Shown piece after piece: positions 19,643 through 25,565 of a DNA stretch of 64,000 nucleotides. The DNA comes from Syntrophales bacterium (GTDB lineage: Bacteria; Desulfobacterota; Syntrophia; Syntrophales; PHBD01): NCBI GenBank assembly GCA_963668175.1, contig OY764159.1:1312001-1376000 (forward strand). Direction: 5' to 3'. Every line of letters starts with the position of its first letter. Position 1 is the first letter of the stretch. A program made the position numbers and the translations under genes. A model generated the notes under the pieces. It was not told the DNA's origin and ran no database searches. It saw nothing but the letters and a program-made list of their open reading frames with translations.

Positions 19643-20020
19643 CTAGGGGGCGTCAGGGGGACCCAGCAATTCCCGGACGGCCGACAGAAGCTGATTGAGG
19701 CTGAAGGGTTTGGCAAACGTCCTGGCCGCCCCGAGTTTGTCGGCCAGATCGAGATATTCCGCCGAATCGATGTGTCCGCCTCCGGAGATGGCGATGATTT
19801 TAGCCTGGGGATAGTTCTCCCTGAACGTGATGATCGTGTCGATGCCCTCCATCTCGGGCATGATGATGTCCGTGATAATGAGGTCGGCGGGGTTTTTCTC
19901 CTGCATGTTCAATGCTTCTCTGCCATTGGCGGCTTCGGTTGCCTCGTAACCCGCCTTGACGAGCAGGCGTATCAACATCGTCCGTGTGGGCTGGTCGTCA
20001 TCGATAATTAAAATACGCAA
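19643..20020 (-). CDS. Single-domain response regulator
   Basis: ILIIDDD, TDIIMP (phospho-Asp), AISGG, KPF. Confidence 0.92.
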   Translation of the reverse strand: MRILIIDDDQPTRTMLIRLLVKAGYEATEAANGREALNMQEKNPADLIITDIIMPEMEGIDTIITFRENYPQAKIIAISGGGHIDSAEYLDLADKLGAARTFAKPFSLNQLLSAVRELLGPPDAP

Positions 20021-20084: not shown

Positions 20085-20882
20085 TCAGAAGCGCCAATAT
20101 CTCCTGTTGTGCTGTCGCAGTTTTTCGAATATCGCTTCCATCTGACGGGGCGTCAGAATACGCTGTTCGACGAAATAGAGGCCGATGCGCGGCTGGAGCA
20201 ATCGTTGTCTTCCCAAAAGAAGAGTAAGCTGGTAGCGGTTAAGATAACCCCTGCGTAAGGCGCATTCGCCGAATTTTTCGCTGGGTCTCCTCTGCGAAAG
20301 GATCTTCAGGATATCGCCATGGTCGAGCCAGTACCATTGCACGGCGATCATACCCACGGCGGGGCGCTGCCTCTTCTGCCAGACGACCGCTTCGATGAGA
20401 GTCCTGCTCGAAATGATGCCGCTGTAATAGAGGAAACGTCCAATCGGCAGTTTTTTCTTGGGGACGTCGCATTGCCAGAAATGTTCCCGGAAGCCGCGAA
20501 ACGCGTCCTGCTGGCTGAATCCGCCGGCGTTCCCCGGCCTGGGACTTGCCGCCGGTTTTCTCTTCTTCCAGACCGGGGACGGCGAGGGCCTCCGCACAGG
20601 TTCGGGTTCTTCCAGGGAAAATCGCCAGGGGCTTTCGACGAACTCGATCAGTCGGGAGTAGGCAAGATTGACTTCCTTGAATCGCTCTTCCAGGCTTACC
20701 GGCTGCTCCGCCAGGGCTGCGGCCCTGTCCGGGTGCGTTTCGAAGGCCTTCTTCCTATAGGCCGCCTTCAGACCGGAAAGCTTGAGATACTTCAGGAAAT
20801 CGACGCCGATATTGACCTCACTGCCGAAGAGAACGGAGCAGGCGTTGATAAGCTCGTTTCTCGTGACAGTATTTTCTTGCAT
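20085..20882 (-). CDS. J-domain (DnaJ-like) protein with C-terminal GspE/MshEN-like repeats
   Basis: AYRKKAFETHPD J-domain; repeated IG..../FGE..LRRGYL..QL..LL.RQ units. Confidence 0.8.
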   Translation of the reverse strand: MQENTVTRNELINACSVLFGSEVNIGVDFLKYLKLSGLKAAYRKKAFETHPDRAAALAEQPVSLEERFKEVNLAYSRLIEFVESPWRFSLEEPEPVRRPSPSPVWKKRKPAASPRPGNAGGFSQQDAFRGFREHFWQCDVPKKKLPIGRFLYYSGIISSRTLIEAVVWQKRQRPAVGMIAVQWYWLDHGDILKILSQRRPSEKFGECALRRGYLNRYQLTLLLGRQRLLQPRIGLYFVEQRILTPRQMEAIFEKLRQHNRRYWRF

Positions 20883-21498: not shown

Positions 21499-21783
21499 TT
21501 AAATCATATCCCATTCCGTATCGGGTGAGGCGAAATCCCGAAGCTGATCCCGTCTTTTCTTGTGCTGGAGTTTCTTTAGGGCCTTGGCCTCTATCTGCCG
21601 GATTCTTTCCCGCGTTACGCCCATCATTTCACCCACTTCTTCCAGGGTGAAGGGGCCGTAATTGCAGGCCACCCATGTACAGTTTAGAAATGATTCATTA
21701 TTTAAACGCCACTCACAACTTGTCTCCAGGCAAACCTCGCTGATCAGGTTTCCCTTCTTCTTGCAGCGATATGTATTGATCAA
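21499..21783 (-). CDS. Stand-alone sigma70 region-4 HTH protein with Cys-rich N-terminus (94 aa)
   Basis: [30 protein letters not shown] closely matches RpoD region 4.2; AAGGAG RBS 9 nt before TTG at 21783 (ORF track starts at 21807). Confidence 0.85.
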
Positions 21784-21818
21784 GGGGTCGGTCTCCTTTT
21801 CCGTCAAATATTGTCATT

Positions 21819-21850
21819 AGACTAAACATTGACATCCCGTTTGTCAATGT
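21819..21850 (-). promoter_or_regulatory. Sigma70 promoter with an overlapping TTGACA inverted-repeat operator
   Basis: Minus strand TTGACA-17-TAGTCT; perfect IR ACATTGACA-N7-TGTCAATGT at 21826-21850. Confidence 0.7.
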
Positions 21851-21861
21851 CAGGCACACGA

Positions 21862-23169
21862 TTATTTGAGGCGCGATAAACGTTCCTCCAGACGTCGTTT
21901 TCGATATTCGAGTCCATGCTTTTCGTCGTCGGTCAGCCGTCCGGGACGCTCAAGAATACCCTCGACCAGGGCGAGGGCGTTTTCCGCCTTCCGGCAGCGG
22001 TGCTCGTACCATTTGGCGAGTTCGACGGCGGCGAAGACGTCGCCCGGATTGTCCGCCAGCATCTTTTCCCAGACGGAGACGGCCTTATGCCATTCGCCGG
22101 CGCGTTTGTAAAGGATGGAAAGCATTTGGCCGGCCTCGGCGGCAACGCCGTAACGCTCCGATTCCATGAGATAAACAAGCAACTTTCTTGTGCCTTCCCC
22201 GTCGGCGCGGGCCGCCCGCAGTTTTGCGGCTGCCAGAAGATCCCGATGATCGGCCGCGGCCGGTCCCAAGGGGGCGGCAATCAGTTCCGTGAGATGGAGC
22301 GTGAGCCCGGCCATCGAAATGACGTCGAGACGGTTGTGTTCGAAGACGTCCTTCATGATCCTCGGGTCCCGTCTTCTGAGCCAGTCGAAATAGCGCTGGG
22401 GGATTTCGCTGCCCGGGATGTCGTTTTCCCGGTAGAGTCCGAGGATATGGGGCTCGATGGTGGCCAGGCGGCTGTTATCCAGGCGGTGACCCACGAGCCT
22501 GCGGGCGGGGTGGAGGAGATCCAAGTGGGGCAGGCCGGCGAGCGGGTCCCGCAGTCGGTTCATGATGAAACGGGTGGTCAGGAGGCCGACGTCGAATGCC
22601 TTGCCGTTGAACGTGACGAGAAAGCCTTTCGTCCCCGAGATATCGGCCAGGAATGAGAGACAGGCCTTCTCCTCGGAGAAGTCCCTGGCGAAAATCTGCC
22701 TGGTGACGAAGGTTTTTCCTTCAAACCACCCGAGCCCGATCAGGAAAGCCACCGTTCCCGTGCCGCCCGCGAGGCCGGTCGTTTCCGTATCGAGAAAGAG
22801 GGCGTCGCTCCAGGCAAAGCCGGCAAGTGCGCTTTCCCCCGAAAGGAACGCCGCAGCCGCCATATCGACGGCGGCGTATTCGCCTATCGACCGGTGGCCG
22901 TGCCGGTCATGCTCTTCATGAACATCGTGGGAGACGAAGAGTCTGCCGTGGGGCGAATCCATCTCCCGGCCGTTAACCAAGGCATCGAGGGGAGGGGTAT
23001 GCCTGCCGGCCGCAGGCCTTGTGCCGGCAGCCGGTTTCGAGGCGGGGCGGCGGTTCATGATTTCCTCGACCCGCCGGCGAAGCTCGCTCAGCTGATCCGA
23101 GCGGGCCGGCGGCTTTTTCGCTTCGGTCTCTTCCCCTGTCAGTCTTTTGAGGCGCTTGGTGACGCTCAT
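21862..23169 (-). CDS. mrfB: RNase H-like (DEDD) exonuclease with TPR, YprB/MrfB-like
   Basis: FLDTETTGL, TFNGKAFD, HLDLLH..RR, HNRLDV; C-terminal TPR helices; follows the helicase. Confidence 0.8.
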   Translation of the reverse strand: MSVTKRLKRLTGEETEAKKPPARSDQLSELRRRVEEIMNRRPASKPAAGTRPAAGRHTPPLDALVNGREMDSPHGRLFVSHDVHEEHDRHGHRSIGEYAAVDMAAAAFLSGESALAGFAWSDALFLDTETTGLAGGTGTVAFLIGLGWFEGKTFVTRQIFARDFSEEKACLSFLADISGTKGFLVTFNGKAFDVGLLTTRFIMNRLRDPLAGLPHLDLLHPARRLVGHRLDNSRLATIEPHILGLYRENDIPGSEIPQRYFDWLRRRDPRIMKDVFEHNRLDVISMAGLTLHLTELIAAPLGPAAADHRDLLAAAKLRAARADGEGTRKLLVYLMESERYGVAAEAGQMLSILYKRAGEWHKAVSVWEKMLADNPGDVFAAVELAKWYEHRCRKAENALALVEGILERPGRLTDDEKHGLEYRKRRLEERLSRLK

Positions 23170-23198
23170 AATCTGCTCGCGTGCTTTAACTCCCGCGT

Positions 23199-25565
23199 TT
23201 ATTCCCCGATCAGGTCGATCATGGCCAGGGCGACGTCCTTGGCCGCCGTTCCCACCTCCAGGGTGGGACCGACGCAACTCGGGCATCCGTGGCTGCAGGG
23301 GCAGGAGACGATAAGATTCCTGGCCGATTCGAGCAGCCTGTCGTGCTGCTGGTAAAGCAGTTCCGAAAAGCCGATGCCGCCCGGATAGGCATCGAACAGG
23401 AAGACCGTCGGATCGAAGGCGTCGACCTGCACCTGGTTCGTCTCGCCGTTTTTGCCCGGCGTCGCGGTGATTGTGCGGCCGCCGGCGCCGTGGCGGACGA
23501 ACCATTCGCCGCTCTTGTCGCCGATGCTCCGGTCGAGATCGCGGAGATCGGCCATCAGGATCATCGCCGCCAGGTGGTGCAGCCCGTAAGCAAGCCCCGA
23601 CAGGCCGTCGATGATCTCGGCGCGGGTGAAAGGCAGACTGTCCAGAAGGTCCTTCGGAATCGTGAACCAGTAGCTCGTCGTATGCATGTCCTTTTCGGGG
23701 AGATTGACCTCGCCGTAGCCCAGGTTTTCCGATGTGTAGAACTTGATTTTCTTATAACCCACCACCTTCCGGACGACCTGGACCTCGCCGTGCTCGACCA
23801 TGATCCGCCGCGCCTGCTTGCTCGCGAAGGAGTCGATGACCCGGACGTTCGTGTAGGTCATGGCGTCCGTGTAGTAGTCCACCTCGACCTTGCGGACATA
23901 GGCCTTGTTCGCGTTGAGATCGAGCCTGTCCACGTGATACGGCTGCGATTCCAGCATGTAAATGGCGTTTTCGTGGACGGTCGTGAAGGCGCTGTCCCAG
24001 TCGACCTCGGCGATGACCCTGGGGGTGCCCGTTTCCGTTGCATCCACGACCACGACGTTTTCCGGGTTGATGCTGCGGAGATTGACCTCGTCGGCGGGGT
24101 AGCTTTCCGCCGACCAGTGCCAGCGGGAGTCCACGCGGTGGAGGACGCCTTTGTCTTCCAGGTAAGTGAGCAGCTCTTCCAGGTCCTCGCCCCCGAAGCA
24201 TTCGCCGGCCTCGAAGGGAAGCTCGAAGGCGGCGCTTTTCAGGTGGTGGAGCAGGATGAGGAGATTGTCGGGGTTGATACGGCAGTGCTCCGGCGAGCGC
24301 GAGAAGAAGTAATCGGGATTGTCGACGATGAACTGGTCCATGGGGTTGCTGCGGGCGATGAGGACGGCGAGGCTTTGTCCCATGCGCCTTCCCGCCCGGC
24401 CAGACTGCTGCCATGTCGCGGCGATCGATCCCGGGTAGCCGCACATGATGCAGGCCTCCAGGTTTCCAATGTCGATGCCCAGCTCCAGGGCGTTGGTGCT
24501 GACGACGCCCATCACGTCGCGGTTGCGCAGGCCCCCTTCGATCTGGCGCCGCAGGTTGGGGAGGTAGCCTCCCCGGTAGCCGCTGACGAAACGATCGTCC
24601 ACCGGCTTCTTCCTGTCGAACTGGTCTTTCAGATACCGCGTCAGGACCTCGACGGTGAGGCGGCTCGTCGTGAAGACGATGGTCTGGATGTCGTTGGCGA
24701 TCAGTTGCCCGGCGAGCTTCCGGGCCGGCGTCAGGGCCGACTGGCGGATGCCCAGCTCGCGGTTGACGATGGGCGGGTTGTAGAGGATGAACGTCTTGGC
24801 CGCCGTCGGCGCCCCGCTTTCGGCGATCGGCGTGATCGGCCTCTCAACGATGCGCTCCGCGTGTTCCTGTGGGTTGGCCACGGTCGCGGAGCAGCAGATG
24901 AAGACCGGGTCCTGCCCGTAGAAGGCGGCGATCCTCTTCAGGCGGCGGATAACGTTGGCCAGGTGGGAGCCGAAAACGCCCCGATAGACGTGGAGTTCGT
25001 CGATCACGACATATTTCAGGTTGGCGAAGAGCTTTTGCCACTTCGTATGATGCGGGAGGATGCCCGCGTGGAGCATGTCGGGATTGGTGATCACCACGTG
25101 GCCCTGCTTGCGGATGGCCTGGCGGGCGTCGTCGGGCGTGTCGCCGTCGTAGGTGTATGTCTTGATGCCGGCCTTGAGCCTGTCGATCAGGCCTTGCATC
25201 TCGTGCATCTGGTCCTGGGCCAGGGCCTTGGTCGGGAACATATACAACGCCCTCGTCTCCGGTTCTTCCAGGATGCCCTGGAGGACCGGCAGGTTGTAGC
25301 AGAGGGTCTTGCCGCTGGCCGTCGGCGTCACGAGGACGATGTCCCGTCCCGCCCGCACGTGCCCGACCGCTTCGGCCTGGTGACTGTACAGCCGGTCGAT
25401 GCCTTCGTCCTTGAGGACGCCGCGGATGCGGGAATCGACCCAGTCGGGGTAGGGGACGAGGTGCCCGGCGGAGGCTGGAATGCGCTTCAGGGCCTTGACA
25501 TTCTCCATGAAACGGCGGTTGTTTTCCAGCCGCGAGAGCCATTCTTCAAGGGTGAGCTTGGGCAT
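23199..25565 (-). CDS. mrfA: DEAD/DEAH-box helicase with DUF1998 Cys4 C-terminus, YprA/MrfA-like
   Basis: LYSHQ, TPTASGKT, PTKALAQDQ, DELH, SAT, LELGIDIG, QQSGRAGR, CPC..GCPSC; start MPKLTL. Confidence 0.85.
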   Translation of the reverse strand: MPKLTLEEWLSRLENNRRFMENVKALKRIPASAGHLVPYPDWVDSRIRGVLKDEGIDRLYSHQAEAVGHVRAGRDIVLVTPTASGKTLCYNLPVLQGILEEPETRALYMFPTKALAQDQMHEMQGLIDRLKAGIKTYTYDGDTPDDARQAIRKQGHVVITNPDMLHAGILPHHTKWQKLFANLKYVVIDELHVYRGVFGSHLANVIRRLKRIAAFYGQDPVFICCSATVANPQEHAERIVERPITPIAESGAPTAAKTFILYNPPIVNRELGIRQSALTPARKLAGQLIANDIQTIVFTTSRLTVEVLTRYLKDQFDRKKPVDDRFVSGYRGGYLPNLRRQIEGGLRNRDVMGVVSTNALELGIDIGNLEACIMCGYPGSIAATWQQSGRAGRRMGQSLAVLIARSNPMDQFIVDNPDYFFSRSPEHCRINPDNLLILLHHLKSAAFELPFEAGECFGGEDLEELLTYLEDKGVLHRVDSRWHWSAESYPADEVNLRSINPENVVVVDATETGTPRVIAEVDWDSAFTTVHENAIYMLESQPYHVDRLDLNANKAYVRKVEVDYYTDAMTYTNVRVIDSFASKQARRIMVEHGEVQVVRKVVGYKKIKFYTSENLGYGEVNLPEKDMHTTSYWFTIPKDLLDSLPFTRAEIIDGLSGLAYGLHHLAAMILMADLRDLDRSIGDKSGEWFVRHGAGGRTITATPGKNGETNQVQVDAFDPTVFLFDAYPGGIGFSELLYQQHDRLLESARNLIVSCPCSHGCPSCVGPTLEVGTAAKDVALAMIDLIGE

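Follow-up and report, generated by a model that had tools for sequence, protein, structure and literature searches.

Introduction

Few elements of bacterial transcription are as strongly conserved as region 4.2 of the primary sigma factor. Sigma factors composed of two polypeptides have been described as SigO-RsoA (YvrI-YvrHa) in B. subtilis, Sig7-Sig8 of Tn916, gp55/gp33 of phage T4, gp33/gp34 of phage SPO1 and the proposed pair MtvS1-MtvS2 of Francisella (bioRxiv 10.64898/2026.10.01.756105, 10.1101/2024.09.12.612765). In these factors one polypeptide serves the -10 side and the other the -35/flap side, and the known cases are alternative, mobile-element or phage factors that are cut between regions 2 and 4. 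In phage T4, AsiA and MotA provide a further case in which a separate small protein takes over the reading of an upstream element for sigma70. MotA binds F610/L611 of sigma70, and the phage remodels an intact host domain 4, changing its specificity (PMC6755090).

Here we describe a small protein, referred to as mini-protein, that is encoded in a 64,000-nucleotide stretch of a Syntrophales genome (the window). We consider it, with a probability of roughly 0.77, to be the -35-reading trans subunit of a naturally split primary sigma factor. In contrast to the known two-subunit factors, the larger partner would be the dnaG-linked group 1 sigma factor. The cut lies inside domain 4, between regions 4.1 and 4.2, and the small piece carries a four-cysteine domain, which sets it apart from the SigO-RsoA type. 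Whereas T4 remodels an intact domain, the host domain here appears to have been eroded genetically, with the TTGACA specificity kept. The literature as covered by titles, the opening parts of abstracts and few subscription papers contained no split primary sigma factor, no Syntrophales case and no description of the mini-protein family.

A mini-protein combining a cysteine domain with sigma region 4.2

The mini-protein gene occupies positions 21499–21783 on the minus strand of the window. As read from the open reading frame it begins with TTG and encodes 94 amino acids, and a Shine-Dalgarno sequence, AAGGAG (21793–21798, minus strand), lies nine bases before the start codon. The N-terminal part is a cysteine domain of the pattern C-x10-C-x4-C-x11-C(-x4-C), located at 21664–21765 (minus strand); the cysteines of the window's protein are C7-x10-C18-x4-C23-x11-C35-x4-C40. 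It is followed by the region 4.2 helix-turn-helix and the C-terminal helix (21532–21654, minus strand), equivalent to residues 570–610 of E. coli sigma70 in a structure-anchored alignment. Residues 44–84 align with this segment without gaps when compared to solved structures, and they are 66% identical to an outgroup RpoD. Pfam recognized Sigma70_r4 as the sole domain (E 1.9e-13), region 2 and region 3 being absent, which confirms the preliminary description of a cysteine-rich open reading frame of about 94 residues with a region 4.2 helix-turn-helix and neither of these regions. Region 4.1 is missing as well, the match being confined to 570–610 of sigma70. In comparison to group 1 sigma70 proteins such as E. 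coli RpoD and B. subtilis SigA, the mini-protein therefore lacks regions 1–4.1 and has a cysteine domain in front instead.

The equivalents of E585, R588, H600, R603, L607 and F610 are kept in all 92 distinct cellular proteins. We take E585 and R588 to be the -35-reading residues of sigma70, and R603 and L607 to be residues touching the flap. The role of F610 in MotA binding, the four-helix layout of domain 4 and its flap contact are described in PMC6755090 and PMC4598750; PMC9388147 describes R541C/L607P in a passage without mention of the flap. After the conserved His the mini-protein has lysines where sigma70 has Pro-Ser, and AlphaFold predicts one long helix.

Aligned without gaps, 20 cellular members and 34 from viral contigs have four invariant cysteines in common; the fifth occurs in 90 of 92 cellular proteins but in 0 of 33 phage proteins. 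The domain is probably a single metal site, with zinc as the presumed metal. Pfam offered no family for this domain in the window's member, and any weak match was common to at most 3 of 54 members. Among proteins of 166–2000 amino acids no longer fusion of the cysteine domain turned up, which is a weak test. The strong conservation of the N-terminus across homologues led us to reject a decayed rpoD fragment. Two family members depart from the common layout when inspected by eye: of P0132 and P0175, one has an extra C-terminal helix-turn-helix-like segment and the other apparently two tandem cysteine-HTH units.

WhiB-like (Wbl) Fe-S proteins also place a small cysteine-rich metal domain against region 4 of SigA. 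In contrast to these, the cysteine domain of the mini-protein is fused to region 4.2 and its cysteines are spaced differently; the WhiB Pfam model matched neither the mini-protein nor its family.

Distribution of the mini-protein gene

Close homologues are labeled Smithella, Syntrophales or Deltaproteobacteria, and the order was judged to be Syntrophales from such labels. Searching with the cysteine part alone, we found the gene in 144 of the order's 151 genomes and in all 62 genera, as a single copy in 140 genomes. The seven genomes in which it was missed all appear to have an assembly gap at the rpsA block, where relatives carry it: the flanking block stops at a contig edge in two of them and full-length rpsA is missing in the other five. 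As a control, full-length rpsA was found in the complete genome. Since members of one order are kin, the co-occurrence of the gene with the decayed RpoD described below is worth one or two evolutionary events and not 144. Second copies of the gene are present in G074, G135 and G088, as well as in G097; the three that were read (L068, L082, L118) have no upstream TTGACA.

Outside the order and a family described below (f26), a search of 193 genomes of the phylum gave no full-length mini-protein. In other bacterial lineages a degenerate pattern gave three matches in genome_contigs, none of which is a family member on translation; as the pattern excluded the Trp codon of the order and needed exact matches, this does not amount to absence elsewhere.

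RpoD of the Syntrophales lacks region 4.2

The genome of the window (G000) is complete in one contig and has a single group 1 sigma factor, encoded after dnaG and outside the window (G000:C1:146587-148362, 591 aa). Region 2 of this RpoD is intact, no Sigma70_r4 match is found and region 4.1 is followed by a decayed tail. The TIGR02393 cut-off (354 bits) is missed by both chains, RpoD scoring 343 and the mini-protein 51. The mini-protein is the only frame of the genome with the (T/S)RER(I/V)RQ(I/L) motif. RpoH of G000 has a near-canonical recognition helix with one I-to-A change, so the mini-protein is not strictly the sole possible reader of TTGACA. The distance between rpoD and the mini-protein gene is 1.19 Mb and other genes flank the latter in the loci read, whereas the genes of the sigO-rsoA and sig7-sig8 pairs are adjacent.

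An RpoD match was obtained in 142 genomes, and 67 of these provided 69 C-termini for comparison after one sequence cut by a contig end had been dropped. The recognition motif is kept in none of them. Conservation of the majority residue amounts to 94% over regions 3.2–4.1 and 30% over region 4.2. The tail is wholly gone in several sequences; in 37 of 69 the recognition helix persists at its end as a basic remnant, which could still touch DNA or the flap. The tails have no common replacement motif. The sigma piece of the mini-protein begins a few residues past the point where RpoD conservation ends. That the host RpoD has lost exactly the segment carried by the mini-protein indicates a positive and general role of the latter.

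In genomes of the order, searches for sigma region 4.2 gave a single match, the mini-protein gene, whereas in outgroups they led to long sigma frames. Taking the best match per genome in the phylum sample outside the order and f26, we found that it spans region 4.2 in 92 of 92 genomes with a match (E 6e-36 or better), four more genomes being unmatched. In the same phylum sample three genomes of the order and G152, a member of f26, scored far lower than the outgroups. This best-match survey is the fair control, since the intactness of 17 of 17 outgroup RpoDs is circular, these having been picked by the 4.2 profile. Sources of region 4.2 at E 1e-8 or better were evaluated in 61 genomes of the class: 55 had mini-protein genes only, four had in addition an extra sigma factor with intact region 4.2 that lies outside the RpoD clade of the order, and two had none. 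In a quick tree the 25 decayed RpoDs of the order that were tested formed one clade among intact primary sigma factors with a support of 100. Additional RpoD-like sigma factors with an intact region 4.2 (L367-L373), explicable by transfer or mis-binning, occur in a few of the order's genomes; the six included in the tree all fall outside the RpoD clade of the order.

The pattern is that of a split sigma factor: an RpoD with region 2 that has no apparent -35 reader, a region 4 reader that has no region 2, and the occurrence of both in the same genomes. The complementary loss in RpoD and retention in the mini-protein, as well as their co-occurrence, are established at the level of sequence. We infer binding of the mini-protein to the holoenzyme, to DNA and to metal, and also its essentiality.

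A decayed sigma factor in a second lineage

Family f26 belongs to another class of the phylum. Both of its genomes (G152 and G197) contain the mini-protein gene together with a 578-aa RpoD-like sigma factor with a decayed region 4.2, which is located away from dnaG (f26 sigma loci L364, L365 and L366). G197 also has an intact dnaG-linked RpoD in a short frame of 497 aa, which was not found in G152; the pair is therefore not the sole primary sigma factor in G197. Grouping of the decayed f26 sigma factor with the clade of the order was rejected only marginally in the quick tree (p-AU 0.049). Either a second origin or an intermediate that has been retained may account for it.

Promoters across the genome

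TTGACA is the most over-represented intergenic hexamer of G000 (z 8.6, fourth-order model). A TAnnnT element follows 115 of the 705 intergenic TTGACA sites at 17 nt, compared to 32 each at 16 and 18 nt and 6–34 at other spacings. Conversely, the top hexamer 17 nt before TAnnnT is TTGACA, with 112 occurrences versus 14.7 expected. The excess over a control spacing is also seen in G007 (114 vs 28) and G152 (41 vs 14). Judging by these promoters, -35 promoter use persists in the order. A strict TTGACA consensus was considered as a mark of the split sigma factor and rejected, as three outgroups with intact RpoD behave alike (73 vs 6, 40 vs 0 and 57 vs 14). TTGACA is found within 150 nt upstream of 20 of 41 leading tRNA or tmRNA genes in G000; a strict TAnnnT at 16–18 nt accompanies it at only four of these 41 genes, and no 16S promoter of the strict pattern lies within 600 nt. 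The second most over-represented intergenic hexamer pair of this genome is GGATCG/CGATCC (z 7.9).

These data bear on the idea that the mini-protein is a decoy or sponge that soaks up activators, anti-sigma factors or the flap, while RpoD works without -35 reading or TTGACA is read by RpoH or the decayed tail. In its favor, the mini-protein keeps the contact residues for activators and flap, the RpoH helix is near-canonical, and PMC4598750 describes the -35 element as dispensable at extended -10 promoters. The promoters are, however, rich in -35 elements and poor in extended -10 elements, a TG being present at only 7 of the 115 TTGACA-17-TAnnnT sites. TTGACA pairs with TAnnnT and not with a CCCCAT-type box; an RpoH-type pairing with CCCCAT was rejected, with 0–1 sites at every spacing. 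The DNA-reading residues of the mini-protein are invariant, which is needless for a pure decoy, and the RpoD tails share no motif that could replace them. We therefore regard a decoy as improbable and favor the split sigma factor.

The promoter, palindrome and neighbors of the mini-protein gene

A predicted promoter of the housekeeping type, TTGACA-17-TAGTCT, precedes the mini-protein gene (21819–21847, minus strand; -35 at 21847–21842, -10 at 21824–21819), although a consensus promoter scanner did not include it in its two listed sites. At 21826–21850 the sequence forms a perfect inverted repeat of 9 bp around a 7-nt loop, which is specific to this genome. Both elements, as well as the position of the gene directly downstream of mrfAB-like genes, had been correctly noted in the preliminary description, the latter being confirmed by Pfam domains: an mrfB-like exonuclease gene (RNase_H_2 and TPR) at 21862–23355 on the minus strand, which is a minority neighbor outside the system, and an mrfA-like gene (DEAD and MZB), also upstream. 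An operator of the MerR type was rejected, the spacer being 17 nt here as compared to 19 nt in MerR-type promoters.

From this arrangement the preliminary description had derived a sigma domain repurposed as a dimeric metal- or redox-sensing repressor, which binds head-to-head TTGACA hexamers at its own promoter and may be tied to DNA damage, or alternatively a decoy for the beta-flap, activators or anti-sigma factors. We evaluated 200 nt of upstream sequence from each of 94 homologous loci whose N-terminus matched; three duplicates had been left out. TTGACA lies within these 200 nt at 78 of 94 loci and is combined with TAnnnT at 16–18 nt in 74 of 94. A TTGACA facing TGTCAA, in contrast, was found at 1 of 94 loci, namely the query, and is missing even in its closest relative. 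If one mismatch in the partner is allowed, the query is still the only case among 84 upstream TTGACA boxes. Nor is there a palindrome regulon in this genome, as the TTGACA/TGTCAA palindrome has one copy in 4.57 Mb. Across 61 genomes of the order 17 sites compare to 5 of a reversed control, an excess in keeping with TTGACA itself being enriched 1.85-fold; in the 60 other genomes, not one of the 16 copies lies at a mini-protein gene.

A perfect palindrome over the gene's own -35 box, the conserved cysteines and the excess over the reversed control speak for an autorepressor in this genome, while the restriction to one locus and the failure to explain the decay of RpoD speak against it. The link to DNA damage fares no better: 25 of 94 loci have mrfB upstream, and in the commonest setting (70 of 94) the mini-protein gene is convergent on an rpsA-sppA-ihfB block, named by eye and with flanks of only 1.5 kb at 36 loci. 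What stands of the repurposed sigma domain is a conserved stand-alone region 4.2 protein with TTGACA-reading residues; autorepression through the palindrome is highly improbable. Perfect inverted repeats whose arms measure at least 9 and whose loops measure 3–12 number 198 in the intergenic DNA of this genome, which makes the one at the mini-protein gene ordinary. Its RNA fold reaches -12.3 kcal/mol (z -1.68), and 10 of 200 shuffles folded equally well. Since it begins just beyond the mrfB stop codon, a 3' hairpin or chance suffices as an explanation, and it possibly is a hairpin past that stop or a chance occurrence outside the conserved system.

Two further features of the surroundings were recorded. 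In the window, positions 20085–20882 (minus strand) encode a DnaJ-domain protein with an MshE-related c-di-GMP-binding motif (NF053729, 41.3 bits vs a cut-off of 38), followed by a stand-alone receiver gene at 19643–20020. At other loci a multicopy repeat of about 80–105 nt is found after rpsA (L112:735-840, L092:471-552), with many copies in G006, G149 and G082.

Structure and complex prediction

AlphaFold modeled residues 5–84 of the mini-protein with a mean pLDDT of 88.5. The cysteine domain modeled alone reached 54.7, from an alignment that differs from that of the former model. Searching with the mini-protein model, we found no PDB or BFVD match at E 0.001 or better. The best VIA Z was 5.0 and covered the helix-turn-helix only, the PDB matches likewise covering essentially this element; Wbl-SigA4 entries of the PDB appeared among the fold matches solely via their sigma chains.

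A complex of the mini-protein, the RpoD C-terminus and Zn was predicted with a score of 0.41 versus 0.00 for the best of three controls, which weakly supports an interaction in a model that does not extend to the flap. The mark for such scores is reached by 116 of 157 solved pairs and by 2 of 215 mismatched pairs, and it is reached at 0.60 or less by 18 of the 157 solved pairs and by both passing mismatches. Contact agreement between runs was at least 66%, and the pLDDT of the partner was 62 or higher. A likeness to, or memory of, the intact sigma-4 domain may account for the pass.

The mini-protein might alternatively be a free-standing global activator that binds TTGACA first and recruits or bridges to polymerase through contacts outside RpoD region 4.1 and the flap. 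The outcome would be the same as for a split sigma factor, but the protein would be a transcription factor and not a sigma subunit. In line with this, the mini-protein is predicted to fold well by itself, a confident prediction of the cysteine domain requires the attached helix-turn-helix (bearing in mind the differing alignments), and phage relatives are conserved despite having no C-terminal helix. However, residues of the C-terminal helix are invariant in cellular members, and region 4.1 of RpoD is invariant although it has no covalent partner. Isolated sigma-4 is moreover a weak binder of the hexamer. An activator thus appears unlikely, if somewhat less so than a decoy, and we retain the split sigma factor as the preferred explanation.

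Phage relatives

More distant family members were found by a profile search of 1.84 billion representatives. A pattern scan yielded 40 viral loci, 39 of which translate to family members (L301-L339, on contigs of up to 293 kb), while most of what the whole alignment retrieved from viruses was ordinary sigma-4. Neighbor clusters of the family in the ESM Atlas are 94–95% viral. The phage proteins share the helix-turn-helix and have a C-x10-C-x4-C-x11-C spacing identical to that of cellular members, whereas the recognition helix and the C-terminal helix differ. Equivalents of E585, R588, H600 and F610 are kept in 0 of 33 distinct phage-type proteins, with Met and Cys at the positions of E585 and R588, and the C-terminal helix is absent. 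R603, L607 and F610 equivalents occur together in 92 of 92 cellular but in 0 of 33 phage-type proteins. Each of the four loci scanned has a PhoH-like gene next to the phage-type gene, and two of them have a GroEL-like gene there. One viral contig (L215) has a copy of the cellular type beside an HU-like gene. Titles and opening parts of abstracts contained no function for small phage proteins annotated as 'Sigma70 region 4'.

A proposed two-piece housekeeping sigma factor and its implications

According to the mechanism we propose, the dnaG-linked RpoD would supply regions 1.1 to 4.1 and would read and melt the -10 box, while the mini-protein would supply the helix-turn-helix reading TTGACA. 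Its C-terminal helix would contact the tip of the beta-flap and activators. Stabilization of the helix-turn-helix would fall to the four-cysteine domain, probably with one metal bound. As to docking, we slightly favor that the piece packs on the region 4.1 helices of RpoD and so rebuilds domain 4; it could also sit on the flap as a self-contained domain.

A broader scenario is put forward tentatively, as one that we believe in less than we doubt. The order as a whole might depend for housekeeping transcription on a sigma70 in two pieces. In this view a four-cysteine sigma-4.2 module related to those of phages would have been domesticated, and the -35 reader of RpoD would then have decayed, perhaps twice in the phylum. 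Reading of the -35 element would then be the task of a separately expressed, possibly metal- or redox-gated subunit, which might switch transcription globally between a -35-dependent and a -35-independent mode in these energy-limited anaerobes. The phage relatives might be swap-in -35 readers that redirect the host polymerase.

If the split is real, a detachable -35 reader would offer a natural tool for promoter engineering, and a role would be suggested for a phage protein family. For the organisms themselves it would mean that a whole transcriptome can rely on a -35 reader provided in trans, that the amount or the metal state of a 94-aa subunit adds a point of control, and that a core 'hypothetical' gene of syntrophic degraders of fatty acids and aromatic compounds would receive a function.
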